Assembly: GCA_002633005.1 (NCBI GenBank)
Contig: NMRA01000131.1
Location: 493,824-557,823 of the forward strand
Direction: 5' to 3'
DNA: 64,000 nt
Source of the DNA: Phoronis australis
Taxonomy: Eukaryota > Animalia > Phoronida
Positions 11,299-63,590 of this stretch are shown here, one piece after another (the stretch's first letter is position 1; each line of letters opens with the position of its first letter). The translations under genes were made by a program, and so were the position numbers. Below the pieces are notes generated by a model. It saw only the letters and a program-made list of their open reading frames with translations. It searched no databases and was not told where the DNA came from.

Positions 11299-13349
11299 CA
11301 CTAGACTAGCGAGGACAGCATTCTTCAGCGAATCGCTTCGCGTATCTGTCACCGTGTTAAATTCGCTCACTACAATCGGCAAAAAATAACTCAAAAATGT
11401 AATAAATGTGAATAAAAATTATTGCAAACTATGAAAGAATATATTGTTTTACTTATCTGATAATCTTTTTTTGTCGCAAAATTCGTTTAATAATACTTTG
11501 CACGAGTTTTCTGCAGGGACGTGACCGATTTTTCAGACCAAAATGGATGCCGGTAAAAATGAGTGCTATTTGGTTTTCAACCCAGGAGAAGACTAAACTC
11601 GCGAATTTTTACGTGAAACTTCGTGAAAGAACAAAAGGGAGTCTTGCGAACACGATTATGTAAGTAGTTTTCACTTTCCTGCACTTAAAAGTTGAAAAAG
11701 TCGCCTGTTCCCGCGACCTTCAACTTCGAGCTGAATTTATTGGTATATAGAATAATTTGCGAATGTAATGAACTGTATTCCGCCCTAAAGGGTTCATTAG
11801 TGAACTATTTCAAACACTTGTTCTAAACGAACATTTCGTCAATTTCTGACAATCGGGCGAATTTCTGACTCACTTCGTAGTTCCGGGTACTGCCGCTAGG
11901 GGTGGTCCTGTGAATCGCGTTGAATGTTTGGTTTTTTTACTGAAGCACTTCAACTTTTGCTGATGAAAACTCAATGTAAAAGAGAACTAAACAGTCATTT
12001 CTCGTAGTGAGAACAATGATTCTTATATTTAAGTTTTTTTTTTACTATTTTGCTTCACATTTTTGTTGGTCAAGCCACTGATAGACTTGGGTTGGCTTGC
12101 TGCCAGAGAGGTCCACACCCATCTTGCCTTGTTGGTCTTGACATTTTATTCAGAATATGTCAAGATAGAAAATGAAAATGTTTTAATTTTAGATTAAACA
12201 AATATTACAAATGTACAGTTCTACTGCAGTCCTGTGTTTCCAAGACTTTTTGGTCCACTACTTTGAAACATACATGCTTTCGATAAACTTTTTTTCTGAC
12301 CACGGGCCAGTATATATAGTTTTTAACGGAACAATTGAGGTTTGCCTAGACTGTTCATAAATCTCACCCTGATCTTTATCCTCCAGGTAAGCTTTGTTGG
12401 AATTTNNNNNNNNNNNNNNNNNNNNNNNNNNNNNNNNNNNNNNNNNNNNNNNNNNNNNNNNNNNNNNNNNNNNNNNNNNNNNNNNNNNNNNNNNNNNNNN
12501 NNTGCCTTGAGAACTTTATTTATCTGTCCATCATAAATTCTTTTTTGTGTTCATATCACTTGAGACAATTTTAGGATTATGAATATTCCAGTTGTTGGTT
12601 TTATAGCATGAACATTCCTGGATGGCTCATGACAGGGTCTTCATTTTATTACATTGTTGTGGAAAGTTTATGTAAAAGTTTTATTTATTATATGTCTTTC
12701 AGAAGCTTGTATTAAAATGTTCTATATATCATACTTGTCATCAATACATTTTTGAAATGATGTTTGTTTATCTTTGATTTTTACTTAATGTAATTGAGTG
12801 ACAAAGTTAAGCCGGTTGCAAACAGCATGATTGTTAAAAACAATATCACAAATAATATTAATAATTTGCTCAACCAATTATCAAGTTTCAACTTTCCTGA
12901 TGAAAAATCTTTAAAATGATACCTTATTTGTTTTTTTTTCCTGGAGTAATTGTTATTTTATGAAAATTCGAAATCGCAAAATTGTACGTAGTGACTTCTC
13001 TTTGTCGGCTGTGTTGACTTTAAGGTCAATATCTTCGCACAGGAACGTCTAATCGAAATGTTTTTTTTTGGCAAATTATTCATCATAAAAAGTTCTTTAA
13101 AATGATGTATTACATGTCTATTTACGTTTCTTAGTTTTGAAATAATAATATTTTGAACTCGCAGATTCGATTTGACAGAATTTTTACAAAAAATTTTGAC
13201 ACGAAAATGACATTTTCTCCGGAACCATAAGTCCAATTTAAAAAATTTTACTATCGTTATTTTAGTCTCGAAAAGAGCTTTCTAATGATGTATGTTACAT
13301 GCACATTTTCTGAAATTTTTGAAAAATGCTGTTCTCCCTAACTAGACTG
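11299..13349. mobile_element. Putative non-autonomous TIR transposon (CACTA/EnSpm-like start) spanning the assembly gap
   Basis: Left end CACTAGAC-TAGCGAGGACAGCATTCTTCA. Reverse complement of 13320-13340 is TAGGGAGAACAGCATTTTTCA (18/21 identical). Right half has repeated AAATGATGT/AAATGATAC subterminal motifs. No clean TSD. Confidence 0.45.
12406..12502. other. Assembly gap (N run)
   Basis: Run of N bases. Confidence 1.
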
Positions 13350-32265: not shown

Positions 32266-35200
32266 CTAGACAGAAATTGTGTAACTCAAAGCAGTTCTTT
32301 TGGCCTCATGAGAAATCTTGGCTGTGCAAAGTATGGATTCACTAAATGAGAGAGATAGAATCTCCTTCTAACATTTTTTTGTATTGTTTCATAGCCTCTG
32401 CTGTATGTGTATCCTTATGAATGTAACCAATATTGCATTTGCATGCAGCTTATGTGCTGTGTTTTTGTTCACACTTGAAAATGGTGGAGTAAATATGGAA
32501 ACGAGCAATATTTTTTTAAAATGTGTTATTCTAATTTAAGCACAATTGACTTTGACGGCTTGTCAACAATTTTTTTAAAAACATAAAGCATATTCCACTT
32601 GTGGTCACACTATACATTACTGCAACTGACTGAAAGTTAAAACTGTGCATACCGTCTGCTCTTAGAACTGGCAGCGCCCTCTACTGAGGTCTCTGGTGCT
32701 TGATCTTTCTGGACCTGACCAAGAGATGAACTGCGGCTACGACCAGATGATGAGCGGCTGAATCAAAAAAGAGGAATTCTGGGTGTGACAAAAAGAAAAA
32801 ATATTTGACATGTACCATTAAGGTGACAGTGGACATTATCAAATGAAACTTTCACATATCCCTGCGAAAGCCAAAACAACCAAACATGCACAGAATTTGA
32901 TTAGCATATTGCCAACAACACAAACATCACTTAATATTTGAGAGTGCTGCATACAAACAATATTCAAAAGCACACGAGTATCACAAATAAAACGGTCAAA
33001 AATAAAACTATACAAAAGTCATGTAAGTATTCTAATGTAATGAATATTAAGGACAAGTTGTTGCCACTACAACCATCACATTTACTTGACCCTCGACCCG
33101 TAAGTAGTTTCCAGAGAACACTTGCACCGCATTCAATAACGATGAGAGCGTGGCATTAATGTGCACCCACTGTGAACGTCACTAACAGCAAAGATAGGAA
33201 GCCAGTGATCATCAGTGGACATTTGTCACTCATTTTAAACATCATACAAAAAGCCCTGTAAGGGGTCTCTGGGCAAAAAGGATCATGGAACATTCCAAAC
33301 ATGATAGAGCCACAGGCGTAATGGAACACAGCCACAACATTGGACACAACATCGACAAGTGTGATGCCAGAGAAACACTGGTACTCAAGGAAGGTTAAGG
33401 AGGCTGTCTATGTTAAAACCAGACACCCCAATTTGAACAGAGATCAAGGCTTAGAGCTCCCAGCAGTGTATGACCTAATTCTAAAACCAGGTCTACCTGA
33501 TGCGGAAAATCCAGTCAGTGGACAAGGCGCTTAGAGAGCGGGTGGAAACGACCAACTCACCAGACTCCCAGTGCTTTTCAGTAAGTGATTTACCTATTGC
33601 TCAATATTAATTTCATTTTATCTTCACAGTAAACCCTTCAAATGACTGTTGCTTTGTCTCTTATTAATGTAACCAAATTAACAGAAGCTCATTACCTTTC
33701 TATTTTCTCCGCCTCATCCATTGTATGCCTTATATCATCTATTGCCTTGTCAGTAGATTCATTATTGTCTATCCCCCACTCTGGATCCATCTTTGCTTTA
33801 TCAGAAGCTGACTCCTGTTTATCCGGCTGTTCTGCACCATCAGAGTGTGAGGCTGACTTTGCCGAGGATGTAGAGCGGGCTGTGTTAACAGAGTGTTCTG
33901 ACTTTTTGGATTTAGCTGAGTCAGCCCTACCAGTAGCTGTTGAGCCAGGTCTGTACATAATACAAATATAGTCACAGTATTGAGAGATGATAAAATATAT
34001 TAAAGTTTTTCAATCCTCACAAGTCACAAACAGGCAACACTTAAAATGTCAAAGCAACTTAAACACGAGAACCAAGAAAATCAAAATATAGAATTATTAA
34101 CAAGTCAGTAGACTAGTGCATTATTCCTCTTTATGAATGAATAAAACATACAATTTCTGTTATTTAATTACAATATAATAGCATGAAATTCAACTGGTAT
34201 TGCCAGCTTAACAGGACTACCTAACTAGGTGTGAACCATTACTGATAATAACAGTTACAAAATGTGCGACTTTTTTCATGAAGTGAGCTAGGTGCCATAT
34301 GCAACACTAACTGACCCTTACAATTACAGTGAAACTCGCATGAGCCAGACACACATCAGTGGGACCTTTGCTTATATACAGCAAGAAAGCTTCGCAGCAT
34401 AGTTGTTGTATTCCATGAACTCCGCCCTTCCGATAAGTTGGCTTTTACATCACTCGAATAAAAATCTCACTGTAGCTCAAGCAAGTTACACTATTGTAAG
34501 AATTTTTGAACAAACCGTAATACTTAAATATTCAACTTCAACTGAAACCCACCTGACAGGAGATTCAACAAAAGAGACTTGTTTAGGGCGTGAAGCTGTT
34601 TTACTAAGGGAAGATCGTCTAGGCAACAGATTTCTAGAAAGAATTTGTTAGTAAAGCTAAATGAATAAGAATGAGCAGGCTAGTATAAAGACCTCTCTAC
34701 AGAGACATGATGGTTACATGCATAATCAACAGTAATGATGTGAAAGGCTGTTAGTTAAACTTGAAAGATTAAATTAACTCCTGTTTGTTAATCACAAAAT
34801 GTTACCATTGCAAACTCAAAAGGAGCAATAGCTGTGCAATGTGAAGCCTAAATAAAAAAACAATGTTACCATTGGAAGAGACAATAGACATGCTGCTAAT
34901 AAATAACTGCATTACATAAGCTCAGACAATTTCAAAAGAATCCTCACAGCAGTTAGAAGTCTCGTTACTTGCATGTAGATTGCAGAACAGTCAAGTGACC
35001 TTTTCACAGACAGATGCAGATGTCACATGCATTGTGGGAAACAGACCGGCCCACTCCCACAGCAGATGAATCACGTTACATGTACAGCACACCAGGTGGT
35101 GAGAAGGGGATATCCTATAATTCTCTACTCAGGGATTAGTATGCATCAGTTTTCGTTAATCCGTAAAAAATCCAAATCTAAGAAAGTCGAGTCGTAAGAA

Positions 35201-38200
35201 TAGATGGACATCATACACATTAATGGTCTCAGTACAGAATGGATTTAACGGCCACATACCTGGATGAGTTACTCTGCGAGTCTTCAAGAGGCTTCAAATT
35301 TTCATCTATTTTGATGTCCTCAGTCACCTCAATACTGTGAGCTTGCACAAACTTCTTGGCCCACTCAGGCATCTCTCCACCAGGAAGTTTTTCTTTCTTG
35401 GGATTTTTGGGAGGTTTGGGTTTTTCAACTTGTAACTTGCCTTCTGTGAAATGGAGAAAGTTTCAAACTAGAGTAAAGATTTGCTGAAATATATTCAGGC
35501 CAGGAAGAAGGTTGCATGTATTTTGCATTAAATGCATGTTACCAATATGCCACCATAAGAACATACCAAGCGCAACTTTGAAAAAATAGTTCTGCCTTCG
35601 AAAAACTACTATCTAGGTATTGAAAAACCTTAACACATTAATTCGCACATTTTGAATGAAGTTAGTGGCAGAAAATCATTGCACTGAAACAATGAATTCC
35701 ACATAGTCCACAGTTTTGCCCTGTATATAATTAGAAGTGCTAATTCATAATATTAATAAACAAAACGGATGGTTCCATTTCAAAATATAGATGAAAACAA
35801 TTATAGTTTTTAAAGGTGGTACTACATAGGGCTTTTTAAAGACCTTTCGCTATAAATCTAGAATCATGACTGACTAGAAAGTCACTTAAGTCAACCAGAA
35901 ACAGGAAAAGGGTTTCAACAACTGTAAGTGCACCATTGAATGAACATATGCATCCCATTAGGGTGTTCACACGTTCAGTGACTTCACCAGAGATAGAGGG
36001 TTGTGAGCATGTGATAACATCTAGCTCCTTTGTTAACTGTTGAGTGCAGTCTTTTGTCTGATATGACAACATGCAGGTCAATTATCTACCAAGCTTATTA
36101 CCCACCACATGTGAACACTATCAAACCCAGTGCAAATTGGTACATTAGGAAAGAATAGATTGTCATAACTTCAGTTGTAGTAGGGCGATTTTGGCAATTC
36201 AAAAACTAAACATGATCAGCAATTGACGAGGAATTCAGAAATGCTATTGGTTTGTGTTCAAATATGTTATAACTTAACTTTTATTTTTAACAGCACAGCC
36301 CATTCAGGTTATAGATATGATCTTATCAGAGATTAGAGCAATTACCTAACAAAAGAGATCTGGCCCTCCAACCATAAATGCCAGAATGGAGTTAATCATT
36401 CGTGTAATATACTGGTTTCAGCAGTCATCCTCCCAAATTGTTGTTGGGCTACGCAATCGAACAAGTGAGAATTGATCAAACAGACAACTAAAAAAACATT
36501 GGCAATTGGCAAGTGATCAATCCAAACTGCAATACTTTGTAGCTCATTTTCACTAAAGCCTAACTCCTCCAGATGAGTAGCAAGTCTACGAACCTTCTTC
36601 TTCATTCTCTTCCTCAATAACTTCTGGTAAAGTAGGAGGAGGGTCAATATTAATCTGCAATCAAATCACAGCCAGTCATGACAACGGTAACACACAATAT
36701 CGCAATCATTACAGGCAGTCATGATATTGGTAACACAAAATATTGCAATCAAATCACAGCCAGTCATGATAACGGTAACACACAATATCGCAATCATTAC
36801 AGGCAGTCATGATATTGGTAACACAAAATATTGCAATCAAATCACAGCCAGTCATAATAACGGTAACATACAATATCATAATCAAACCACAGCCAGTCAG
36901 AACGAAGACACACAATATCACTAGCTAACGATATTGGCTCTACCAGTTTCAATTAAACAGTAAGTCAGATCAGTTTTACACTAAGCACATTTCTAAATGG
37001 TATACGCATGAAGAATTTGCATTGAATGAACCTTAAAGGTGTACATTATTTTTACTAAAAGAACAAAAAATTAGGCTGGGTAGTTTAACTTCTGAAGTTC
37101 AAAGGTCTAAAAATATACACAATGTTATGTGACAAACTATATGTAAGTGTTTCCAAATAGTATTTTAGAATGTCTAATTCTAGAGCACCTAACTATACAA
37201 CACTTCACATCTAGCTTTACAGACTATCACTACAGTAAAGATGGTAGGACACACTCATATAACACTTTAAGAAGCCTTGCCTATCCATTTTGGTGAAAAT
37301 GTTTACTCACTACAGAAATAGGAACTGATTTTGTAGTTTACAAAGCCAATTTTGTCATTTGCTATTCAACTATTACTCCAGCATTGATAAGGCACCATCT
37401 CTTTTTTAGACAAGATATATCACATGTCACACTGAGTGGTAACATAGGCAGGACATTTTGTGATTTGGATTTGGTACCTTAGTTAATGATCTCGTATGAC
37501 GTTAAAGTGAAGAAAACATAAAAATACATTCCAAGGTTTCTTCAAGAGTCAACATAGGATTAAGACACCTCCACCAATAGTATGGTTACCATGGATACCA
37601 TAGTAACAAGGACCAATCAACTAAGGGAAGACAAGCGGGATGTGAACATGAATGTGCTGTGAGCACACTATGTAGCATGTGAACACACTATGTAGCATGT
37701 GAACACACTATGTAGCATGTGAACACACTATGTAGCATGTGAACACACTATGTAGCATGTGAGCACTATATGTCATACTTTGGTGTATCTTGCAACATCT
37801 GCTACTTGGATCTGAAACCAGCAGTAACTATGACAACAATGATTGAAACAGCAAATTGGGAAACATACAGTCACAGGATGGGTTAGAGCTTAGTATAACT
37901 CATGCACAAATTGGAACCCTGCATGTTCAACAATTTATAAAGGTTATGGATACAGTTACAGCTATTCAGTTTCTTCACACAAAAATAACAATGGTTACTT
38001 TCTGACTTTCAAGAGGTTGACAACAGTGCTCGTATCATTTCCCAGGTGTAGTGTCATGACAGAAGTAAAGTTCAATGTTAAGATTATCCACACGTATCAC
38101 AGTAACATACACGGCTTATCTGCCAGATTTGTACAGTTCTTTAACATAAAATTTTCCATTTGTGACAATGGAGAGGCACAATAGAAAACAGTTTTGAAAG

Positions 38201-41200
38201 AAATAATCAAACAATAAAATATACACTAAAGTGTACATTGTGGCTTAATTTCTGTATGCTGTCTCTGGACAAATGTGCCCAGTTCTTATGCAGAGACTGT
38301 TTCTGTTAAGTCTGCTAGTCCAAATAGGTTGAACAACATATTACATAAATAGGATCATGTTTGGAAAACAGTACATATTCATTGAGTAGTGTTAGACGTA
38401 ACAAAAATGACTTGGAATGAAATACAACAAACGAGTCACATTTGTAAAGAAAGTGGAAACAGGAAAATCAATCACAACTTCACACTGACAAAGCACCATC
38501 TATTGAGCAGTGTAACTTTATGAATTTACCCACAGCCAAATGAATGATGAAAGGTAACTGATAAGCATTCATAGGTAACATAAACATCTTATTACAAAAT
38601 ATGTTAATTTGAGTAGGTGAGTTGTTAGCCCTGATTGCTGCGGGGGTAATTAGCCATTGTGAAAATCTAATTGTGAAGGCCAGGCTATGTTCTGGAGTCA
38701 AAAACATTAAAGTTCTTCAAAGACTAGTTACTTTAATTTTTCTAAAACAGTGTCATCAAGCTTCTATTCTCTGTTTCAATTGGTTACAGTTAATTTCTTG
38801 AAATTCCCCCAGTTGGCAGCTGAATCAAGTAACCTCTGTGCCCTCAATCCCTCTATTTTGGGGCCAAATATCGGCCCCATTCCCCTCTAAAAATATTGAA
38901 ATATCGTGCGAAATTCCCCTCATGATGGCCAAAAATCCCCCTCAGGTGATTGAGAACGTCCCCTCGAGGTTTGAATCACTTGTAACTCACACAGGTGACA
39001 ATTTGAAAGAGCACAAAATGTTAGTTTTGGCTACTTGAGGCAGAGCTTATGAGAGTTGGCAACAGGGGGGAGCTACTGATGGTGCAATCTACCTCACCCC
39101 GAAATGTTCCTCTCCCAGAAGGCACAAGCAGTTTTCCCATTGAATAAACAAGGGCCCTGAACCTGCCCGACAAGATAGCCTAATGTGAAGCAAAAATGGC
39201 CATTAAGTTCTTCTCAAGCCAAGAAATTATTTCCAAACTAAGTAAAGAAGAAAACAAATTTACAACAGTATATGGCCTAAATAAAAACTTTGTTTCTTGG
39301 TCATGGGTTCATTACTCCTGTAACACAATACACAAGATCTGTGAAATAACTCAGAAGTCATTCTTAATGATGGCTTAGGGAATTGAAGTGAAATGTTGAA
39401 ATAAATACTTTGTCATGTTGATTTTCCTGTTGGCACTTAGGCCAGAAATAGACCTATAGAAGAACATGAAACAAGTTAAGATTGGAGTCAGACATGTTAC
39501 AAGATTTACAATTGGATTAATATGATTGTAAATGTCAATTATAAGACAACAGACCATATCTAACATCACACTGATTTTACCTGTCCTTTTTTATTAGAAC
39601 GAGTGTCCTACGAAACAAAATACTGTTCACTAACTACATCAAGAGACACATTTAAAGAATCATCATCATCGCCCAGGGTTACCAAGTTAACCTTGAATGG
39701 GTAACAGTTGTAGTCTTACTCTACTTTGCAAGACCAAAAGGCATGAAGTCAAACAGGAGAATTTTTGTAATCATACTTGCTTAGTTGTCTCGCTCATTCA
39801 CACATGCCTAATCACGTTATATCAAAATTTCAGAAAAGCAGCCAAGTCCTCAATACCACAAGATCAGTAGCCATGGTTTTGTAGAAGTCTTCGATCACAA
39901 GATTTAAAAATTCTACAACAGATCTTCCTGAAAACCCTGTTAATTGATAATGGCATATAACTGAGAAGCAAGTGAACACACTAAAGAAGTGATAATGACT
40001 CTTACCTGAGGCACAACTATGTTGTCTGGAAGATTACCTGGGGCCTCACTGGCGACCTCTGGTGTTTCTCTAGAACACAATAAGATCAAACACTGCGAGA
40101 GACTAGCAGAGCAATTACAGAACTTAAATCAGTCTATTTGCAAAACTGACAGAAGCAAGTTATTGACGGAACTTCAGCACATTTTGTCTGGGATGGTCAC
40201 TAAATGACAAATAGTTGTGAAAATGTTTTTGTTATGACTGAAACCAACACTGAAAGTTTCCACTTAAAGACCCATTACTTGGTAATGCACTGCACTAAAG
40301 GATATTTTGATGCTCTTATTTTTACTTGACTAAAACTGTAAGTAGAGCGCGATTAGCCAAATCACCAAAAGTGTTATTTCAACTTACGTGAGTGTGTTCT
40401 CCCTGAGTGAGCTAGTGCTAATACGTGACTGTACGCTGGCCCGACTTTGAGACCTGTTGCTTCTTAGGTCTGCCTTCACTAGTCTGTTGAGCTCCAACAT
40501 CTGAAAACGGCAAACACAAATGAGTCGACCATATAATTCTGTAATTCAAAAAACAAATTTGGCATTCAATTTATGTGGATGTTAAAGCTACATAGTGATG
40601 GGATTCAATTCATGAGGGAGAGGTAAAATTTACCCAAATTTTTTCTTCCAGTGCAACTCGTGGCAAAATTTAGGTACTAATTTAATTCTGCTCATCAAAT
40701 CAAAAGGTAAACAAATTTATCATCATATCAAAAGGTAAACAAATTAATCATCATATCACAAGGTAAACAAATTAATCATCATATCACAAGGTAAACAAAT
40801 CAATCATCATATCCCAAGGTAAACAAATTAATCATCATATCGCTAACTCCTCTGCAGATGGGTGTTCACAACAAAGGACTTTTTGAGGTTATGTAGGACC
40901 CAAAAATGTCCAAATTTGACTGACTTCAGACCATCAGATTTTAGAAATGGCTGACTGGATTCACATGAAACGCTCAGATTGTAAGCTTGACGCAATGTTC
41001 TCAATAACGCTGTTAGGAATTATTTTTGAAATGACCCACTTTTGCACGAGTGGCTATAAAAATAGTACTTTCATGATTTTCATTTAAAATTTTTAAAAAT
41101 GCATAAAACAAAAACGAGATATTTTACAAAACTGTAATAGCTTTTTTGATATCCTACCCAAGACATTAACATCAAACAACATTTGATCATGGCATTGATA

Positions 41201-44200
41201 CAGTTGTTTTGCTATCAAATACTTTACTTTTTTGATAGATTTTACTAAAACAATGGCATGGACAGGTGACGTAGATTGGTAAAAAGTCAATAATCAAATT
41301 CTACAATCTTTCTACTTTCAGAAAATAACTACCTCAAGTTTATGGAGTTAAAATGTGTACTTTTCTAAAATATTTTGCTAAACGTACAGACTTCTTGATA
41401 AGGTCCTACATAATTTTAAGGAATAGAAAGTTCCTACTGTACACAGGAGGGTGGATAATATAAGAGTTTCTTTAAAGTGACTTGTTTCTGAACCTTATAA
41501 TCCTACCTCTTCATGGTTCATCACTGTCATATCACCGTGAATCCTACGCCTCCAATCACCACCCTGCTTTTTCATCTGCCACAATAACAAAAGATTCATT
41601 TACAGGTAAAATACAAGCTGACGGATAATCCTAATTTAGACAATCTGCATTCAAACACCCAGAATAAATGTGCCACTTCATTCATGAAGCACAATTGACT
41701 GTAAATTTATAAACAATCTAGTCTACCAGCTTACACAATAGCATTTTCAAATCTACCACAAAGAAAACATTATTATGAGCACGTTTCAAGTACTCAATTA
41801 ATAAGCACTCTGCAAGGTAGTGTTCAGCCTTGGGAGTTAAACACGATAATTTACAGCAAATTTTCATATTATTAGCAAAGCTAAATTTTAAAAGGTAAAA
41901 GCTTTGGCATATACAATAAATTTTCATAACACAAAAAAAATTGTTCTAATCTACCATAATGGGAAAAGGAACTGTTTTGATGTCAAGCTTAGTAGGAATG
42001 TATTTTTGACATTAATTACTGTTCCCTGGCGTGCATTTACTATTCAAGTAACAACACAAAGTCACATGAACAGCCCAGAAAATTGCCCACATCTCAAATC
42101 AGCAAACATATATATGTCCTACTCACCATATTTGCTCAATAAAAGTGAATGCAGAACAGGAAAAGTGCGTCTTTTTACTGAGCCGTTTACACCATCTTCC
42201 ATTGTTTCATGAAAAGTAACACACACCAAGGAAACAACAATGAACACTAAAAAATGCAACTCCAAGATAACCAAGGATCTTTATTTTTAAAGGTTAACAT
42301 CAAAAATGGATGATTGGCTTCCCTTCAAGATGACATCAGTGGATACTACAGCTAAGAGCAAGGCTCATTTAATATTTCACAGGGAAAACAAAAACAAAAA
42401 AAGCAAGCATATTTACCCGACTTTTCATTCTGCAAAGAAAGAAACATGTAAAGTCATTAAAACCATTGTTGAAGTGAAAAAAATTGGTTGCAAGAACGGA
42501 ACAGCAACACTAAGAAAAACATCAGTGCATTGCTTTAATGTCAATGAAGCCATTAACAATTAGCTGGTTTAATGAATACATGTCATGTGAAAGCTGCTAT
42601 AAGTTATACTCGTTGCCTGAACAATAATCAAAATGTACATTCTGTACATTGACACTAAGATGATACATACAATGACGAAGCGACATCATCAATCTTTGTG
42701 TTCGCTGCCATTGCTGGTTTGATATCTTCCGGCCGGTTGATGAGTGGACTAGGGGAAAGGTTCTGATTTGCATCGAACTCAGGTTCCTGCACCACAGGGG
42801 GCTCTGGTGACACTGTGCCTCCTCGAGCTCGGTTCTTTTTCACAGTCTCCATGACATACTTGGCTACAAGGCAAGAAAGAATAAAATGTAAACCAGTCTA
42901 GTATGTGCCTCCCATGCACGTAACTTCACACAAGTATGGAAGATAAACATGGTGAACACCAAGACATTTGTGGATATTTTGTTTTTTAACTAATGGTGAT
43001 GGGCAGATGAATGTCACCTCTATATGCATTTTCAGTGATGTAAACTTGTGTTGAAAAATCACAAAAACTCAACCAGTGGGCATGTGTGAATGTGTAAGAG
43101 GCCATGAAAAGTACGCAGTGTCAACATTTTAAACATTATGGTTGCAACAAGCATGTGTTCAGTAAGGTCACGAGTCAACTTACAGCAAAACTGGCAGTAA
43201 AAGCATGAGTTAAAGAATGCACAATTATTGCAAGCATCTTTCTTTTGATAGCTGTAAATGTGTTGCAAAGGATTAGAAAATCCTCACAAAATAAAAATAC
43301 AATTGCAAAAAAACAGCAATACAAGCAAGAGCAATGCGAAGCATTGAAATACGCCCACGAATGCATCCCAAATGGTGTGCTCTTAGAGTTGCTTATTTGT
43401 GTCATAAAAATGGCCACTAGATGGTGCAAAAACATAACAATCCATCCGAACACAGGAACATCTCATTGCTTTTTTAATAGGAAGCTAAACACCAAATTTC
43501 ATAGAAATCAGTCATGGAACTTCAGAGAAAAAAAGGAAACAGAATAAAATGAAATTGACACTAGGGGGCACAGTGTTCATTGGATCCGCCTGAAAGTCGT
43601 CATTGTCTGTTGTTAGCTTCATATAAATAAACTTACAAAATTTAATAAAGATCCTGCAGTGAGTTTAGGAGAGGCAGCTATGGGTGCAACACAAAACAAA
43701 ACTACCCCTAGGAAGCGCCAGAGTAGTCAAAGTCATCATCATCAACCATCCTCTTCACACTGAGAACATATACGCCAATTTTCAAAACCATCCTTAGAAT
43801 GATTTGATTTAAGAGAGGTAGACGCCAAAAAACAGACTCGAAAAGAGCAAAAATGGCCACTAGGTGGTGCAAAGTACCTTGATTCCATCCGAAAACAGGA
43901 GGATAGCGTCATTTCACCAATAGATGCCTATATTCAAAATTTTATGAAAATCTGTTGAGGACCTTTGAAGATACAGAGGTAAACATAAAACTAAATTGCC
44001 AACAAGGGGCATACAAGTAGTCAGACCCATCCCAAAATCGTCGTCGTCCCTTGTCAACATCATATAAACACACTTCTTAAATTTAGTAAAGATCCTGCGT
44101 ACGATTTAGGAGATACAGCCATGGGCGCAAAAAACAAACTGCCACCAGGAGGTGCCACAGTAGTCGAAATCATCGGAAAATCATCATCAGCGATCCACTT

Positions 44201-53200: not shown

Positions 53201-56200
53201 ATTAAGATGGTAAGATCAAACATGACTGGGAAGATCTGAAGAAATGTTAACACCATACTCTTGGTCTGCTTGGAGTTGAAGCCCATACGAGCCAGGACAG
53301 CAAAGGATGAAACTACAGTGATGCCGCCTAAGGCTAGCTCTTGGTTGGACAGGTACTTAACCGGATACCAGGAAAGGTTGGTCACTATGGCAATGAATGT
53401 GATGATAATGTCGGCGACCTCTAGTGGCTGGTCTCGCAAGTGATGGCCCATACCGATGATACGCAGAATGGTTTCAATCTGCAAAATTAACAGTATCAAC
53501 ATTATGATCAATGAAAATGAGAGAAACTGAAACTGTGATAAACGACAGCCATCTCCCAAGATTTATAAACTGAAATTAATCAAAAGTATAAATATTACAT
53601 CTCTACAGACAAAAATTAACCGTTTTTAAATAATCTGAAGTCATTTCTTCAAAATCCCTGCTCTAGTTAATCACAACAGTTACTGTAATAGTCTAAGGTC
53701 TTCGGAAATGTAATTGCAGAAATTTTGAAACAAATCTTATTAAATCATTATTATTGCATAACACATAACCTCAATTATGCTATTTTTCAAATAGCCAGCA
53801 AGGCCAGACATAAAGGCTTAAATTTTCACTTGTATACAAGTTGAATCGCAAACAATTTTGTATCTTTACCAGAAAGATAACAATGATGGCCGTCTTCATT
53901 CCTTGGACTATGAAGGCAGCCTCGTCTGACATCTTGTACCATTTGATAAAGAACAAAATACTGAAAGAAGAACATGATAGTATTGGTAACATACATGAGA
54001 AAGCACGGATTTTCATCAGAGCACCACGGAACTCGTCTATACAGAATTACTTCCAACGTTTTGCTTATGTTTGTTAACAAAATTGACAATGAGGACTAAG
54101 GTCAGGGTATAAAAATATAGTTAAGCTTTTTTATCAGAGCGCTACGGAACATGTCAACATGGAACTAAAACAATTGCATAACAAATTAAATTTAACTTGT
54201 TAAATAGATTTATTTGTTGCTCTAGTTGTCATTTCTATCTTATATCCAGAATTTCGGTTCATTTTGCGGTACTCATTACTACTTTTCTATTCATACACCT
54301 CCTTGCTCAATATGTCACTCATCACTTATTTCTCCTTAGTGTCAGTACAGTGTCGCCAAACACATTCTTGCGTTTTACTCTGCAACATAGCTCGTCGCAT
54401 TCTCCAGGCAAAATATATTTGAATAAAATTTAAGACAATATATTCATTCACTACACCATAATAGTGCAGAGTATGCCTAGTGTAGGTATAAATAGGTCAC
54501 AGGCAAAAAAAGTTGATATTTTCTTGCACACTGTTCACTATGTAATGACAGGTCACAAGAGAGTGGTGACCCTATCCACTTTTAACAGCCACATAATTAA
54601 TACTTACGTATGAATGATAATCAGCACCAGTATACTCCTAGTGAGAGCTACAGACTGTACAAAATGACGGATGGATTCACTGAGACCGAGGGCACACGTG
54701 GGACAGCAAGACTGGAACGGAGAAGTGGAGAGGATGAATACAATGAATACAATGATTAGCACTAGACAGTATAGTGCTAGTGAGCACTACATGCTGTGCA
54801 AAGTGAAGTTGTTCAAAGTGGCAGCTGGACAAAATTAAAAATCACCTCTGTCCAAAGATGTGCTAATATTCTGAAGTTGCAGTAATCTCGCTTCAACATG
54901 GCAAAAGTACTAATACGTCATTAAAATGATAAAAATTTTACTCGCATGTTTATTTTACGGCACAATACAAACTACACTAAATTGAAATAAAAAATTCTAA
55001 TTTTCTTTTTTTGTAACCAAATTCAACAAAATTCTTCTTGTTCCCTTTTTCAGAGTTGTCATTGAGAAATTCAACAAAATAAAACTAAACAATGAGATGC
55101 CACCCATGTGAACAAGTCCATTATTTCCAGGGGAAAGTAAGAAGACATGCCAGTGCTTAGTCACCTTAGTGTAGAGCACAGGCTCCTTTTCAAACTCATA
55201 GTTGAGGGCGTCAGTAAGACGGGTTGTCCACTCGAATGTATCAATGACACCATCCCCATCATCATCAACATAGTCTATCAGTTCTTTAATTTCATCCTCT
55301 GAGTTCTGAAATGTACCAACAACAAGTCACAAACATTACAAAGATATAGCAATAAGAGTACCAACAGAATTAGTAAATAATAATAGTTATGTAACAGCAA
55401 CAGTGACAGCAATTATACTAAAATTAATAATTGATTTTGGCTAGAATGCTATACTAGCAGTTAAGGATAAGGAAAATTAACAAGAAAGGGGTGGATTATA
55501 AGGTCTGTTACAGTAGCTAACTTAAGGGTGTTAACCTTTACGCTGGTAATACTGGCATGCACGCTACGAGTTTGTGACTTTGTTGTGACCTGGTATAAAT
55601 CTATTAAACCTTATTTCATTTTATTTCTGCCTTAAGATGAGGCATGACCAGTCTCGAGATGACATTTCACATATCTGATTTGTTAGGTCTCTTTGGAGAA
55701 TCAACAAATGTATGGTGAGTTTAAGTGAGTGTTTATTAAAGTTGTTACCAAACAATATTGTGATGTGTTGAACCAACTCTACATACAATAGAGAGGTAGT
55801 GGTCACACTGTTCTGGTAACACAATGTAAGAAACTGTAACATGTGAATAGAAGAGACACTAAGATTAAGGGTCTGCTGTACGAGGCATCCTATTCCCCTT
55901 CTGAGATCATTACTTAAAAAGATGTAAAAAAAGCTAAAATACTGTGTGGTGACATTCATATCAACTATTGATCAATGAAACACTTTGCTATATTACACTT
56001 AAATGGGCAGCTCCATAATACGGTACAAAAATGAGAAGCAGTAACATTGTGCTTTAAATGACTTTTTCCACAAATAAAAAATTTTGACAAATGTGAACCT
56101 CTTGATTCACAGAAATTTGTGTCACCAGTGAACAATAAGACAATATCTCATGCACTGTGGACATGTTTTTTACCTGAGGCCTTAACCGCTTGAATAAGAG

Positions 56201-59200
56201 GACCAACTTCTCGTCACCAACACTGAGAGATCCATCACCTAATGGGTCTAGAATGTTCCATGCCTTGATGATCTCTGCTCGCTCTCGTTTGCGCTCCATC
56301 TTGACATTCTTCTTGGAGAAAGCCCTGAAAACATCAACATCTTAGCGTCAAGTCTACACACTTAGCACAATATCTACAAAAATAACTCAGCAAAAGTACG
56401 TTTTCTGAAAGTAGAAATTCTGTAGAATTTGAATTTTGACTACCAATCTGTCGATCACACAACCATGTTTTTTGGGAAACTTTAGCAAAAAGAAAGGTAC
56501 ATTCATAGCAAAACAACAACATCAATAACATGACCTAATTCCATATTATATAAATGTTTTATAAATCTCCAAAACACTGTTACAGTTTTCTTAATTATAG
56601 TTTCATTTTTGATTTATGCAACTGTTTCATAAGAATCACGGAAGTCCTGTTTTTCGATAGCCACTCATGAAAAAGTGGAACATTTCAAAAAAAAATCCCT
56701 GACAGCATTTTGTAGAACAGTGTATAAAGCATGGTATTTCAAAGTTTCGTGTTAATCCGATTGGCCGTTACTGAGACATGATGTTTCAAAGTTGGACAAA
56801 ATCTGACATTTTTCTAGGGTCCTACATGGCCTTAACAACTGTGCAATATGCAGGCAAAGTATGACTTACAGACATTGGAAATATTCATCTGTAGTTACAA
56901 TCACAAGGGTACAATTCAAAAGCATCTTTGACACTAATTGGTCAAGCATGACCATTACTGTGAGTTAGCTACATAAAAATTTCAAAGGAGACTAAACATT
57001 GACCAAGTGGTAGTCATGACGAACTGGTACTATTTTGGTCACATAGAGAAGAGAAAGCGAGTTGCAATTATGAGAGCATTCATCAGCTAACAGTCTCAAG
57101 TTACTACACTTGAAAGGTGTCACTGGCGCCACCTGGTGACTTCTTGTGACTCTCTTGTGAGTTTGACAGGAGTGTTAGACATTTAGTGTAGAATACTTAC
57201 CAGTAATTATCCACAATGATGGCCAATAGGATTGCAGTGAGAAAGAACACACCCACGTAGAGGAACAGGCCAAAGTAAATGAACGAGTAGGATGCCACAT
57301 CAAACGCAGGCATCATGAACTCCTGAATATAAAAAGAGGCAATTTTCTACTTTGTCCACAGTTTGTTGAAAAGTAATAAATACCCAGGGGTGTAGCTTCC
57401 AAGGTAGGATGTAAAGGTAATAAATACCCAGGGGTGTAGCTTCCAAGGTAGGATGTAAAGGTAATAAATACCCAGGGGTGTAGCTTCCAAGGTAGGATGT
57501 AAAGGTAATAAATACCCAGGGGTGTAGCTTCCAAGGTAGGATGTAAAGGTAATAAATAACATGGGGTGTAGCTTCCAAGGTAGAATGGAAAGTTAATAAA
57601 TACCCTGGGGTGTAACTTCCAAGATAGAATGTAAAGCCAAGCTGTCAAACATTTACATGAACATGACAATTCAAGGGACATCCTACAGTTTAAGACCACA
57701 CTCAACACATACAAGTAAACTCCACTCACAGAGCTGTGTGAGCTCTCACTTACTAATCACTAGTCCACATATAATTCACAAATCATTCTAACTTCAATTA
57801 AACAAGATGAGACAAAATTATTATGATAGTATGTAGTCTAAATTAAAACTTAATTTTCAATAGAAATCAGGTTCATAGTAGTTTTAGTTATTTCAGATGG
57901 TTTTAGATTTAGTAATGTCTAATGCCTCAAATCATTGGCTCGTTACGATGGCCAACAATACATGTTATCAAAGATAAAACTAATTGGCTGCAAGCACATG
58001 ACGTGCTTTGTAAATCAACAAGGTATTATCAGCTACATGATGACGCAAGTTTCATCATCACACTCAAAACTACATGTACTAATATCTGGGTGGTAAACCT
58101 TCATTACGCAGCAATGCTAATGTAGACACAAAAGAAAAATCAACCACCTGCAATTAACACAGCAGACTTCTCCAAGAAGGTCAATCTGAACAGCTGTTCA
58201 GATGGACACAGAGATCAATCTGAACAGCTGTTCTGGGGTCAAATTCAAACATAAAGGGAGACTTGTATGAAGCAAATATTCCTTAGTTCAAAAACATTTG
58301 TCAAGACCACTTTCTTTTAAAATGAAATGTCTGGCAAATGTAAGAAATCAAAAAGCCATATTATAACACATGCAGTTAAGATTGGTAATAAAAGTAAAGA
58401 TTACATTCCATTTTTGTTCAGCACAAAAGCTTTAAGAAATGAAACTTACAGGAAAATTTTCTGTAGTAAGCAGCACAAATAGTTGAAGTGATGCGTTGAA
58501 AAAATGATCGAAAGCCCTGAAATATAAAGGAGTGTCCAGACAACTGTTCATAAACATGTATATTTTAATAGATCAACAGAAAAATTACATTTACACCAAC
58601 AATTATCCAACACACAACAGTGTATTTATAGACTTCTCTCGTAAGTCCATTTATTTAGTGATTCCAGTTTAACATACGGGTGTTGAATTTTACAGCACAT
58701 TGGCATACAGCCATTTCCATTCCCCATAAATCAAAACAGCACATCCACGCAATAGAGTGATACAAATTTAGAACAGGATTTTTTAAGAAGGCATTGCTTT
58801 CCAAAGTAAAAAAGAGCTAATTGTTCAACTGTGGCCTTACCCTGTGTACACGTCATTGAAGTTTTCAGTACAGTTTGGCCCAGTTCTGTTGGCACAGCCA
58901 ATGAAGTGATAATCTGGTCCAAACAGGTGAACACCAGTTCCAGCGAACACCATGATGAATAATGAGATGACAAAGAACACCTGCAAAATGACACCCTTTT
59001 AAATCCTTGTTTCATGTCTCAAAGTCTAGTACTACTTTCAATTACTATTTGTTTGAACATAATTCACTAATCAAGCATTTTCTCACAAACTTAAAAGAGT
59101 AAAAAATAGCAATGCGAAGGAGCTGTGAATTGTGTAGAGTAACTGTTTTGCATACTTTTTCTGCAATCAAAGTATTAATGCAAAAATGTTAAAGCATCAC

Positions 59201-62200
59201 TACAACCTACTGTGAAACAAAACAAATTTCAGACAAAAATAACTGCTGACAAAATTATCATTTTTTATTTACAAGGTGAATGTCCACAATTTTTCAAAAT
59301 ACAGTCTGATGGTAGCTATGGTAGAGCACTTAAAACATTGTTAGACATTAATTTAATGTTATGTACCTTTTATGAAAAAAATGAGAAAATAAAATTTTAC
59401 TTGTGTCCTAAACAGTGAGAACTTACCACACTGTATGATGTAACCACTCTTAATAACAAGCTGCCCAGACTAACGAGACTGATGAGAACAATGTGAACGC
59501 ATGGCAGTTTGAAATGTTGGGTTTTAATGATAGATAGACAAACACCTTAAACTATTATACATTTATACGATAACACATATTAAAATACTTCACGATGCAG
59601 TTTCATTTTCCGCCTTGGCGGCAAGAACATTTTGTGAACTGCTCAACTGAAATCTGCAATTCTACAAAGGCAAGGTATGCTGTGCTTACCTTTCCCAGCT
59701 TGAATACAATAGAGACACAGACGTCGAAGATATGTGCGACGTTCTTTGTTTTGCACATGAAGGTGGCAGCACGCAGACACCGAAATGGTATGATAATACG
59801 AACTGGAGAACTGCCCACCTGAAAGTTATGGATTACCGTGTTTACATCACGTGACATACAAGGTGTGGTATTAATAACGAGTTTAGAAGTTTTATGGCAA
59901 TTAACACATATATGCACCAAGTAACAGTAATAAAAATAACCCTCCATAACCTGCAATGTATACAGGCAGGCCTGCATCATAAAAGTGCTCTCTAGCTCAG
60001 GCCACCATCCTGCACCAATTGTTCTGGAACCAACCCGCCCATGAATACACGTTATGTTGGATATACGTCTAGCACATTGTCTAGAAGACAATTTCTAATG
60101 TAATGAAAAATACCAAAGCCGAGATCGTTGAGCACACATTTGTCGAGAGTAATGCTGTTTGTCTTAGGTTGCTAGAAGCATTGACTGACAAGATACAGGA
60201 CAAGAATGCATCATCAAATAGTGTGTTTAGTCTCGTGTGTCTGTACTTTGCACAGTATCCAACAGGGGTCGCGGCAAGTTGGTAGCTTTTTACACCTTTC
60301 TATGCATGTTCAAAGCAGCTGCTTCAGATTTTTCTCCTCTGATAATGACAGGCGAGTTTGATCGAAGAACCAGGAATAAATGTAAATCGTGTATTCATGT
60401 AGTCTTTATTTTTGCAACGAATATTGGGCAGCTGATGCATTGTGTATTTATTTATATAAGAGCGTGTGTCAATATGAGCTTGTGAGAAGACTGTGAGGAA
60501 GCTAAAATTGCCAAAACCCAGTGCTTTGCTCACCAGCCCTTGCATTAAAGAAAATTTGCTGCCAACATACACAAATTTCACAGTAAGTTATCAACCTATG
60601 ACCATAGTCTGTGAAAGGTATGTCAACTCTCACTTTGAGGAGACTACAGCGAGATCAGTTTGACAGCAGTTTAATCTAATTAAGGATTCCAAAGTTAGTT
60701 GTGAGTAGAATCTGAATAAGGAACAGAGCTTTTTAATAAATAACCAACAGGATAGCAGCTATCGTCGTACAACATAAAAATGTATCACTTCAACTAAATG
60801 TACAGTGTAGTACCAATTGTAGCTTCTTTGTGACATTTTCTTCTTGAGTTTACAGAAGTAGGAGTAAAAAGAAGTCTTACCTTTGGAAGAAGCTCTTGAA
60901 TACACAACAGGATGAGGTCAATGGTGAACAAACAGGTGAAAACGAATTCCACTCTGAAATGAACACGTCAAGCTTACAGTCACACGGTTCCACAGCAAGA
61001 TAGAGTTAAGAGGTAATCAAATGAGCAAAGAGTGGAATGGCATGTCAACGAATGAACAAAGAGTGGAATGGCAGGTCAACGTATGAACAAAATAACATGA
61101 ATGGGAAATCATTAAGTGTTGGACGTTATGTTCACATGAATGGATTATATGAGTTAGTTAAAGCTGCATTTCACTAATATTTAGCAGTTAATGCTAATTT
61201 CTCAACCAAAGCGCTTTGGGGTTCAAAATATTAGTGCATAAATCTTAACCATAATTTGTAAGTTGTATCTGCCTAAATGATCTACATAGAGGGCGGACAA
61301 CACCCTTTATATGTCATGAGCCCGGCTTTCATGGTTCCTCTAACATATCCCTAGAATAATAAATTACAGGGAATCAACCTCAACCTTGCCCTGCATTTGG
61401 AGCATAAATTCCAATAATTCATCCTACTCATCTATAATATAACCACAGAAAGGTCCCACAGTCAGATCACAAGATGCTTTGGGCAGCAATGCCAATCTAA
61501 TGCCAGTGGCTGTAGCCAGCTAGCTTGGAAGCACAGCCAGTGGCAGTTGCCCGATGAAATAATCCGATATAACATGACCACGTTTTGAGAAACAGGTTTA
61601 TGCCTGTTATTCATTGGAGAAAGCTGGTTCTCAAAATGCGAGCATGTTATGTCCAATTATTACCACAGTCGCCAGCCGGCTGGAAACTAAGATACTATTT
61701 AAGCATGGTATGGACAGGCAGATTATTAGATTATCAACTGTGACAAATACTTTGGTGAGGCTGAAGTCTGGAGGATAAATAAGGATAGCCAGCACCTCAA
61801 TACAGCAGATCACGTTTCAGCCATCCAAAGCATCCCCTAACCACCCGGCGCGTCCTTTAGCCATCCCATAAGCATCCGGGCATTCAGCATTCGACAAACA
61901 TGAACTAATCTTTAGTATTTTCAGAAATATACTGTCTCCTAGGCCTAAGTAGTCCTACCTCAGCCATTTGGTTTCAGGTAATGTCCAGAACCGACGGCAG
62001 GTGTAAAACAAGAGACTCAATACTAGATCAACTATGAGTATTAATATGCAGACAACTTCTAAGACTATCACCCAGACTTCAATCCTGGAAAATAAGAAAT
62101 GAAAGTCCATTAATCACATCAGTGTGATCTAGCCAGACACAGAGATTATATATAAACAAGGCAAAATTAGACTTATATGAAGGGTGAGTGCAAAAACAAG

Positions 62201-63590
62201 AACAACAGCACCATGGAACTTTGTCCGAGTTAAAAGAATTATGCACGTCGGACATGGGCAAGTTTTACTGTGTTGTTATCATATACAGATGTACATGTAA
62301 ATCAACAATAACTGTTAGAAAACTATCCTCTTATTTCTGGCTTTAATTACTAACGGTAAGGAAGAGTTGGTCTTCAATACCTAACAAGAATTACACCGGC
62401 TCCACTTGGACAACAGGGTTAAGTTGACACAGAGATGACAGCAATATGCACCCATAGTGAAAATTTGCAGATTATTAGTAAGGACTGTTTATGATAAGTC
62501 TGGAAGTTGCAGACGGAGGTGCCCCTAAGATCCATTGTTGCGGGTCAGTGGGCCCTCCTCCCATGAGCAGAACTAATAATTACCATCAGCAAATACCAAT
62601 GTGGCAAAATATATCTTTGGCAACCTAACACAGTTCAATCAAGGTCTGCAGCATCATATGTATTTCAACTACAATGTCACTTCAACTAATACAAATTGAA
62701 TTCAAGTTTAACTTTGAACACTCAATTTTTTAAATTTTTGATGATTAAAACCAAAAATAAAACTAGAACCCTGTTAATTCTCTTCATTTTATTATTTCGG
62801 AGTCTAAATCATAATATCAGAAAACAGAAATTTTTAGTTTAAGCTGAAATTTTAGGATACTGAGTCTGATACTGTGCCTAAATCTGTGTGAACATTTATT
62901 TACATAACAGGCATTGTACCACATTTGTGTGTGTGCAAACGGACCTTGTTGTACCATTTGTCTACTCTCAAAAATACAACGGACTGCACCAGTTAAGGCT
63001 AAATGTCCAATGTGCCATTTGCAGAAAGAGATAGAGAAATAACAACCACTTTTTGACAATGACAGAGTATCAGACATGATATTGTGATGTCATGGCCGTG
63101 ATGAAGCTTATTAAATGTGGTATCATGATATCGTGGCCATGGTAAAGCATATCACATGTGATATTTTGATAATATCATTGTGGTAAAACATATCAGACAT
63201 GATATGGTGATATAATGGCCGTGGTGAAGCATACCACCGTGATGTGATATCATGGCTGCTATGAAGCATATCAAGACGCGATACTGTGATATCGTGGTCG
63301 TGGTGAAGCATATAAGACATGATACTGTGGCCATGGTGAATCATATCAAGATATGATATTTTGAAATCACTGATGGCCATGGTGAAGCATATCAATACAT
63401 TAAATTGTGAAGAATATCACTGCGGTACAACTACATGAAAATCAGTTCTACAAATAGAATAACTATCTTCGCTTACTGGCCTGGCTTAATAGCTACATTA
63501 GGAGATTCCCAGAGAGGCAGAACACTGAACAGGACAATAAATAAGGCCACGAGGCGACGCCACCATTTGTTATCTATGATATGGAAGCAC
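32266..63590 (-). CDS. Two-pore channel (TPC)-like 2x6TM cation channel with EF-hand linker and C-terminal SH3 domain; 5'-partial, ~1190 aa in window
   Basis: Phase-consistent GT-AG exons (minus): 63590-63477 (IS1 WWRRLVALFIVLFSVLPLWESP), 62084-61959 (IS2), 60953-60881 (IS3), 59818-59690 (IS4 RIIIPFRCLR), 58980-58841 (IS5), 58516-58450 (pore LFVLLTTENFP), 57322-57201 (MMPAF..IS6 LLAIIVDNY), 56324-56174 and 55305-55165 (EF-hands), 54711-54608, 53960-53870, 53478-53189 (IIS1-S5), 52532-52422, 52208-52068 (pore FQILSTSNWHEI, IIS6), 49614-49521 (LFVAIAIEAF), 49243-49178, 48533-48423, 47709-47632, 44799-44571 plus 42863-42671 (SH3), 42429-42417, 41575-41507, 40500-40388, 40069-40006, 36654-36594, 35443-35260, 34618-34553, 33950-33696, 32757-32653, then a last exon 32341-32266 (or 31796-31733). 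The channel core is secure; the terminal exon and small tail exons are less so. Confidence 0.88.
33300..33600 (+). mobile_element. Penelope-like retroelement fragment (GIY-YIG endonuclease C-terminus), antisense within a channel intron
   Basis: EHSHNIGHNID, then (frameshifted) EKHWYSRKVKEAVYVKTRHPNLNRDQGLELPAVYDLIL; the R..KEA.YI/V....LNRD.G motif is typical of PLE endonucleases. Confidence 0.85.
36655..36921. repeat. 88-bp higher-order repeat of ~44-bp monomers abutting the acceptor of exon 36654-36594
   Basis: GCAATCAAATCACAGCCAGTCAT at 36657, 36745 and 36833, alternating with GCAATCATTACAGGCAGTCAT. Confidence 0.9.
37659..37770. repeat. 20-bp tandem repeat (GTGAACACACTATGTAGCAT) x ~5.5
   Basis: Directly visible. 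Confidence 0.95.
40701..40821. repeat. ~28-bp tandem repeat (AAGGTAAACAAATTAATCATCATATCAC) x ~4
   Basis: Directly visible. Confidence 0.92.
42850..44710 (-). other. SH3 domain of the TPC-like channel, split by a phase-1 intron
   Basis: KIKVMMAFRKSNEDQIDLHVGDEVKVLETKGEWMRGVSRGRTGWFP|AKYV; splicing 44571 to 42863 completes the GxFPxxYV signature. Confidence 0.9.
43320..44506 (+). mobile_element. Helentron/DINE-like element with an internal ~145-bp tandem array (3-mer higher-order unit of ~430 bp)
   Basis: 5' ACAAG plus small hairpin CAATGCGAAGCATTG. Repeated units each end in CAAATTTCAT-like blocks. 3' block CAAAATTTCATGAAC...GGACGCCGGA..GGACG, then a stem-loop and ATAAAAA. Confidence 0.7.
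49857..51467. mobile_element. CpG-rich ~1.6-kb insertion, probably nested non-autonomous DNA transposon(s)
   Basis: ATTTATCCACCTT...ATAATTGGCT at 49857-49918 is inverted relative to AGCCAATTAT...AAGGTGGATAAAT at 51372-51465. The interior is much richer in CpG than the flanking intron; no transposase ORF. Confidence 0.45.
57373..57636. repeat. 44-bp minisatellite x6, ~50 nt upstream of the IS6 exon acceptor
   Basis: GTAATAAATACCCAGGGGTGTAGCTTCCAAGGTAGGATGTAAAG, period 44. Confidence 0.97.
63070..63400. repeat. Degenerate ~42-bp minisatellite (~8 units) near the IS1 exon donor
   Basis: Recurring GATAT..TGATAT..TGGCC.TGGTGAAGCATATCA. Confidence 0.85.

Follow-up and report, generated by a model that had tools for sequence, protein, structure and literature searches.

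Two-pore channels with an SH3-bearing tail: an ancient and apparently undescribed subfamily, seen from a gene of Phoronis australis

Gene structure in the window

A stretch of 64,000 nucleotides from the phoronid Phoronis australis (assembly GCA_002633005.1, contig NMRA01000131.1, positions 493,824 to 557,823; hereafter the window, numbered from its first letter) was analyzed. On its minus strand, from 63590 to 32266, lies a gene of 31 exons, all of whose introns are GT-AG and whose 1228 aa are encoded without internal stops. The encoded order is a channel of two repeats of six transmembrane segments (2x6TM) with an EF-hand linker, followed by a 615-aa tail that bears a basic helix and an SH3 domain. 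With its relatives, this protein apparently represents an undescribed, ancient subfamily of two-pore channels (TPCs), and the gene and its family are almost certainly real. The initial annotation of the window had described about 30 phase-consistent exons; the open GT-AG frame was upheld, but the count is 31 with a 13-nt micro-exon, and further 5' exons lie beyond the window. The tail, which had been put at about 580 aa, measures 615 aa after the sixth segment of repeat II (IIS6), and the three motifs quoted in that annotation were located on the minus strand at 44763, 41563, and 35381.

The first model, obtained by exon-by-exon reading of the minus strand, was stop-free and had 30 exons and 1225 aa, with one weak donor. 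A splice-site scan gave the micro-exon 42429-42417, whose acceptor (14.2) and donor (9.8) each lie above the 99th percentile of the scan. Its inclusion increased the family-profile score from 1198.0 to 1205.4, and it took the place of an in-phase but weak donor at 42667. Exon 10 splices in phase to exon 11, and a candidate exon between them, near 54496-54329, was therefore discarded; extra candidates between 40006 and 36654, which had low scores, were omitted.

Since exons 1-16 of the model served to train the splice matrix, their own splice scores are circular. An independent control used a profile built from 34 relatives, with the window protein excluded, against the complete set of 2923 six-frame window fragments. 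Its top 20 fragments were 20 of the 30 exons then modelled, collinear and scoring 7.8-95.5 bits, and the best non-exon fragment reached 5.5. Pfam was also applied to 17 single exons, and the domains expected in the initial annotation were recovered to different degrees: SH3 clearly, on one exon (E 2.5e-9); Ion_trans on four, one of them above cut-off; and the EF-hand on one, below cut-off. The claim of a 2x6TM channel and a complete SH3 in one frame is borne out by the profile control, in which window exons match both repeats, and by this SH3 match.

Eight tail exons (17-19, 25, and 28-31) were placed by splice signals and phase, with no homology support, and the acceptors of exon 29 (0.4) and exon 31 (-1.1) are weak. 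The N-terminal part of the relatives had no counterpart anywhere in the window, so the gene start lies beyond 64000. The Rfam scan of the window gave no RNA family.

The predicted protein ends in the hydrophobic sequence T-I-S-V (32280-32266, minus strand), which we take to resemble a PDZ ligand; support for the last exon is weak, and this end is unconserved. Intronic tandem repeats with units of 20-88 bp, which carry spurious open frames, were seen at 57369-57636, 63068-63358, 36656-36899, 37640-37773, and 40692-40841.

Relatives and their distribution

With exon 12 as query, HMMER returned 13 matches from 1.84 billion proteins; a word-index protein search with the same exon gave nothing among 118 candidates. 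When 11 proteins were scanned for domains, all eight exon-12 matches longer than 1000 aa contained Ion_trans twice and SH3. The channel part of one match was then used as query in a second, word-limited search, which gave 58 proteins: 41 family proteins at 152-1571 bits, one SH3-less relative (P0058) at 233 bits, and 16 distant channels (TPC2, Cav, Nav, and other four-repeat channels) at 109 bits or less. From sponges to chordates, the family proteins shared 40-57% identity with the query. The named members come from homoscleromorph sponges, anthozoans, jellyfish, Lingula (two paralogues), Owenia, Tubulanus, Ptychodera, genera of five echinoderm classes, Branchiostoma, and three tunicates, so the family, with 41 database proteins from sponges to tunicates, does occur in other invertebrates, as had been anticipated. 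No vertebrate, arthropod, nematode, or mollusc name was found among the family-level matches of this word-limited search, which does not prove loss. The nearest proteins to the window protein are those of Owenia, amphioxus, and Lingula, with about 41% identity across ~1030 residues.

Database labels of the members were TPCN1, sodium channel type 11, P/Q-type calcium channel, or empty names. The ESM Atlas holds a 70-member cluster, automatically named TPCN1, with Ion_trans in 100% and SH3_2 in 96%. The cluster at rank 2 (score 0.90) has 64 members of ~1049 aa with Ion_trans only; Endomyxa is the commonest among the few with a phylum, and these may be protist relatives.

Channel and SH3 stand in one chain in 39 of the 41 relatives, which agrees with the earlier proposal that the two are joined in one protein; of the other two members, one is a model labelled partial and one ends inside IIS6. 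One member is a complete sponge transcript open reading frame (ORF) with both channel and SH3, and in another the 1026-aa frame occupies a contig of 3176 bases, which leaves no room for introns. In the face of these data it is extremely unlikely that a second gene contributed the SH3 exons and that the fusion is a modelling artefact, even though exons 17-19 are without homology support and the model is derived from genomic sequence.

Phylogeny and origin

The IQ-TREE analysis used both repeats in 37 rows, among them seven four-repeat channels and, from the 41 search-level members, 19 that were entered directly or through a cluster mate. Twenty SH3 proteins formed one clade (100/99) with two SH3-less proteins as its sister (100/97), and TPC2, the only TPC in the tree, was placed outside. 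Within the family, sponges, cnidarians, and bilaterians were separated, and the window protein fell among spiralians (98/94). Grouping of the family with TPC2 was rejected (p-AU 0.012, approximately unbiased (AU) test), and a second AU test gave the same value.

With P0058 as query, 10 matches were obtained, among them the Salpingoeca rosetta protein PTSG_01632 (XP_004997612.1, P0076) at 461 bits. This protein has the same TTEN/TTSN filters, EF-hands, and an S4-II (fourth segment of repeat II) with one Arg, and lacks SH3; the WRR-like end of its tail scored 3.2 bits, a value that none of 200 shuffles attained. Its channel follows a stretch of about 590 low-complexity residues, and about 290 residues lie between IIS6 and the WRR-like end. 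Judged by this choanoflagellate sister without SH3, the lineage is older than animals. The initial annotation had proposed a separate TPC-related lineage with its own SH3, kept in invertebrates; the single clade with TPC2 outside supports the separate lineage, but its origin is not confined to animals.

A family member scored 51-68 bits against TPC1/2/3 and 95 bits against plant TPC1, its best-scoring TPC, whereas TPC2 scored 156-169 bits against TPC1 and TPC3. A rapidly diverging TPC1, TPC2, or TPC3 copy with an acquired SH3 would have the TPC fold and would suit the TPCN1 label of some members, and TPC1 and TPC3 are outside the tree sampling. We nevertheless regard such a copy as highly improbable, since the 40-57% identity extends from sponges to chordates, the gene tree mirrors the animal tree with a choanoflagellate sister, and the scores against TPC1/2/3 are far below those of TPC2 against its paralogues. 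The family is likely distinct from animal TPC1-3 as judged from sequence. Nesting inside TPC1/2/3, which the initial annotation had named as the contrary outcome, is not seen with TPC2, while for TPC1 and TPC3 the comparison is one of scores only.

In a repeat-level tree (38 rows, again with TPC2 as the sole TPC), repeat I grouped with repeats I/III and repeat II with repeats II/IV of four-repeat channels (97/97). Both repeats joined the TPC2 repeats (100/99 and 100/98), and therefore the family stands no nearer to Cav than does TPC2.

The channel core

Residue counts were made in an alignment of 33 family rows. The Glu of filter I is present in 31 rows and aligns with the Cav filter Glu, by way of the Salpingoeca protein. 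In filter II the corresponding counts are Ser 27, Asn 5, and Ala 1; TPC2 has Asn there, and according to the accessible part of PMC11844439 this Asn sets the Na+ selectivity of TPC2. The motifs of animal TPC1/2/3, TTANN and VVNNW, were not matched by the family in these rows. Filter variants also occur naturally: in P0052, the second Lingula paralogue, the filter I Glu is lost (TTSN) and filter II is TAGW, closer to the plant pattern, while filter II is TTND in tunicates and TSNN in Oscarella. These variants are material for selectivity tests.

Two Arg are retained in S4-I. In S4-II one Arg is invariant, and the last 14 positions of this segment hold a single basic residue in 32/33 rows, compared with three in TPC2. 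The first EF-hand (EF1) is degenerate, and the second (EF2) follows the canonical pattern in the window protein, as in most members, with the first Asp in 31/33 and the third-ligand Asp in 30/33 rows. Conservation from sponges to tunicates is strongest in the pore helices, the two filters, and S6. This conservation argues against a non-conducting protein that acts as an accessory subunit or membrane scaffold, a role that we consider very unlikely, for all that neither repeat has a charged S4 and the tail is long and of signalling type.

Conserved basic residues are present in the IS4-S5 linker and the IS6 extension. Three lysines of the TPC2 IS4-S5 linker are presumably the ligands of phosphatidylinositol 3,5-bisphosphate, PI(3,5)P2. 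At these positions the window protein has Ala, His, and Asp, and the third is Asp in 17/33 rows; other basic residues sit one turn before them. The conserved basic residues, the nearly uncharged S4-II, and the grouping of both repeats with the TPC2 repeats would suit a TPC2-like channel, that is, a voltage-independent, phosphoinositide-gated endolysosomal channel in which the EF-hands are structural and the SH3 serves in sorting only. That reading is unlikely in our view, because other residues align with the presumed lysines and EF2 retains acidic ligands which mammalian TPCs lack (PMC11844439, in the part available).

The cytosolic tail

Profile searches detected SH3 in 39 of the 41 family proteins and the WRR and P-x-W-x-x-x-F motifs in 35 each, with tail profiles that were built from many of the same sequences. 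Pfam's precomputed annotation has SH3 on 37/41, and the domain has a predicted local distance difference test (pLDDT) score of about 90 in both models of relatives described below. The islands that had looked ordered in the initial annotation thus include two recurrent motifs; the tail, however, is not only a scaffold, as the WRR motif is the predicted TPC C-terminal domain.

The ligand-groove positions of the SH3 were those which we take for the canonical aromatic groove. At these positions the first aromatic is lost in 32/33 rows and the last Tyr is His in 26/33 (Tyr in the window protein), while the second aromatic and the final Trp-Pro are retained, and by sequence the ligand pocket appears atypical. 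The nearest solved SH3s are those of beta-PIX, Shank3, and CIN85, and none of the 24 structure matches of the SH3 was a Cav-beta or STAC SH3.

The SH3, the basic helix, and the P-x-W-x-x-x-F motif co-occur in animals and are missing from the two SH3-less relatives. P-x-W-x-x-x-F is found only together with SH3 and is a candidate internal SH3 ligand. The joint appearance of these elements would also fit a plasma-membrane or ciliary/flagellar Ca2+ channel, targeted by the basic helix and SH3 and gated by a partner, not by Ca2+. The named matches, a choanoflagellate and marine invertebrates, might hint at cilia, but these taxa retain many ancestral genes for unrelated reasons, and a channel of this kind is quite unlikely.

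Predicted structures

AlphaFold models were made for the relatives P0052 (pLDDT 75.9) and P0029 (65.0). The 15 best Foldseek matches were all TPCs, at 16-18% identity, and the VIA Z scores were 24-28 and 29-31.5 for TPCs versus 20 or less for four-repeat channels. Both models aligned with mouse TPC1 (6c96) to residue 795, skipping the SH3 and stopping just after the WRR helix; the first alignment ended at model residue 886/983 (root-mean-square deviation (rmsd) 4.2, 646 aligned) and the second at 1077/1184 (rmsd 4.2, 650 aligned). The second model also aligned with plant TPC1 (6e1k) to residue 701. The best family-profile score in the PDB was 252 bits versus 1198 for the window protein, and no family member is among the solved structures.

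From these models the WRR motif is the inferred counterpart of the TPC C-terminal domain. Because it is predicted to fold back to where the C-terminal domain of TPC1 lies, the basic helix and SH3 appear to have been inserted in animals between IIS6 and that domain. Plant TPC1 needs Ca2+ at its second EF-hand, and its C-terminal domain touches this activating EF-hand through R700 and is indispensable (10.1101/373860, available in part).

Neighbouring features

The exons and features of the channel gene are listed in Table 1. A convergent gene with PHD fingers lies on the plus strand at 15452-28682; its exon 28560-28682 matches the PHD fingers of MLL3, PHF10, and DPF, and from its upstream exons we take it to be PHF10-like. 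An acidic 322-aa frame with a 21-bp repeat (15452-16420) may be an exon of this gene. At 26437-26683 (plus strand) a unit consisting of the final 67 bases of a PHD exon and the splice donor recurs 3.7 times, extending into the intron, and stops interrupt the later copies. An assembly gap of 97 N lies at 12406-12502, outside the channel gene.

Table 1. Coordinates of the channel gene and its parts in the window
Feature	Position	Strand	Remark
Predicted gene part in window, 31 exons, 1228 codons	32266..63590	-	5' exons beyond 64000
Exons 1-4	63590-63477, 62084-61959, 60953-60881, 59818-59690	-	
Exons 5-7	58980-58841, 58516-58450, 57322-57201	-	
Exons 8-9	56324-56174, 55305-55165	-	
Exons 10-12	54711-54608, 53960-53870, 53478-53189	-	
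Exons 13-15	52532-52422, 52208-52068, 49614-49521	-	
Exons 16-19	49243-49178, 48533-48423, 47709-47632, 45796-45701	-	
Exons 20-22	44799-44571, 42863-42671, 42429-42417	-	
Exons 23-26	41575-41507, 40500-40388, 40069-40006, 36654-36594	-	
Exons 27-31	35443-35260, 34633-34553, 33950-33696, 32757-32653, 32341-32266	-	
Channel repeat I, exons 1-7	57201..63590	-	
S4-I, two conserved Arg	59782-59771	-	within exons 1-7
Filter I, TTEN	58467-58456	-	within exons 1-7
End of IS6 and EF-hand pair, exons 8-9	55165..56324	-	
EF1 loop	56248-56213	-	degenerate
EF2 loop	55266-55231	-	canonical
Channel repeat II, exons 10-15	49521..54711	-	
S4-II, one Arg	near 53289	-	within exons 10-15
Filter II, STSN	52177-52166	-	within exons 10-15
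Conserved short helix after IIS6, exon 16	49178..49243	-	
Ser/Arg-rich unconserved linker, exons 17-19	45701..48533	-	splice signals and phase; no profile match
Basic helix and most of SH3, exon 20	44571..44799	-	basic helix 44763-44719
Final SH3 strand and Pro-rich linker, exon 21	42671..42863	-	
Micro-exon of 13 nt, exon 22	42417..42429	-	basic strand preceding WRR motif
WRR motif and next helix, exons 23-24	40388..41575	-	predicted counterpart of TPC C-terminal domain
Pro/Glu-rich linker, exons 25-26	36594..40069	-	exon 26 weakly matches one relative
Conserved P-x-W-x-x-x-F motif, exon 27	35260..35443	-	motif 35375-35349
Unconserved tail end and stop codon, exons 28-31	32266..34633	-	least certain part

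Discussion

The reading we prefer is that of a two-repeat channel of TPC fold, in a family likely distinct from TPC1-3, that would act as a Ca2+-permeable dimer opened by cytosolic Ca2+ and not by voltage, and whose SH3 would couple gating or location to a partner; we judge the chances of this mechanism to be evenly balanced. In the dimer a Glu-Ser-Glu-Ser filter ring would be Ca2+-permeable and not Na+-selective. By analogy with plant TPC1, Ca2+ on EF2 would shift the unit formed by the EF-hands and the C-terminal domain and so open the gate. The nearly uncharged S4-II, with its one Arg, fits a channel without voltage gating. The ligand of the SH3 may be of a kind other than PxxP, with the P-x-W-x-x-x-F motif in the same tail as one possibility.

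When the family was set against TPCRs by their published descriptions, we came to lean slightly towards seeing it as the animal branch of the TPCR clade. A more detailed version, in which this branch is Ca2+-selective and non-voltage-gated, is switched by the EF-hands and C-terminal domain, and carries the SH3 between gate helix and switch so that a partner or its own P-x-W-x-x-x-F motif controls opening, is put forward only tentatively and is rather doubtful. The clade is reportedly due to Rahman et al. 2014. TPCRs of unicellular eukaryotes are treated in PMC4278181, PMC8490419, PMC6259924, and PMC12839299, and Salpingoeca rosetta appears in the legend of a TPC/TPCR tree (PMC8490419).

Several observations weigh against the Ca2+-opened channel and the descent proposed here. 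The TPC2 branch in the tree is long, and TPC1, TPC3, plant TPC1, and named TPCRs were left out. In many members the outer end of S4-II carries one extra basic residue, beyond the counted positions. EF2 is degenerate in the tunicate members and its last-ligand Glu is present in just 19/33 rows, so Ca2+ gating may not be family-wide. Changes in filter I of TPC2 have only a subtle effect (PMC11844439, as far as the available text goes), which places less weight on the Glu of the family. The WRR profile gave no match in TPC2 and its score on the Salpingoeca protein is low in bits. The folded proteins are relatives of the window protein, the pLDDT of their WRR region is 62-86 in one model and 56-74 in the other, VIA output is limited to the two end residues of an alignment, and TPC structures are among those seen by AlphaFold.

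The literature search found no description of an SH3-bearing TPC, most subscription papers being outside it, and within that scope the architecture is not an already characterised one, as had been supposed. The available part of a 2026 review gives animals three TPC paralogues and no TPCR (PMC12839299); three TPCs are given for lophotrochozoans and sea urchin, and six homologues for a sponge, in the accessible part of PMC7312350. If the reading holds, the family would be a fourth two-repeat channel of animals, against the three TPC paralogues stated for them. It is present in the laboratory models sea urchin, Nematostella, Ciona, and amphioxus, hidden by misleading labels, and could add to the Ca2+ signals credited to TPC1-3 in sea urchin eggs. 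As a natural two-repeat channel with a Cav-like filter Glu and no charged S4, it makes the working of Ca2+ selectivity and gating in two-repeat channels testable by expression.

In comparison with known systems, the family resembles TPCRs in its 2x6TM plan, its doubtful voltage sensors, and an acidic Cav-like filter residue, which in the family is found in filter I only, with Ser in filter II. In contrast, TPCRs are said to be absent from animals (PMC12839299, available in part), and no SH3 is mentioned for them in the portions available. Plant TPC1 of Arabidopsis shares the TPC fold, the acidic EF-hand pair, a first filter II site without Asn, and a predicted C-terminal domain on the EF-hands. 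However, its S4-II has the gating residues R537/R540/R543 (in the part of the source available) versus one Arg in the family, and it has ~730 aa without filter Glu or SH3, at 16-20% identity.

Animal TPC1/2/3 have in common with the family the 2x6TM fold, the S4-I pattern, the pairing of repeats with I/III and II/IV, and, for TPC1, the predicted C-terminal domain. They differ in their filters, TTANN/VVNNW (PMC11844439, accessible part) versus TTEN/TSNW, and the family has an acidic EF2, other residues aligned with the presumed linker lysines, and a 615-aa SH3 tail, at 16-18% identity. Cav channels with Cav-beta or STAC are similar in the high-field Glu of filter I and in having an SH3 near the cytosolic channel face, whereas the family has two repeats instead of four, no charged S4, and its SH3 in cis.

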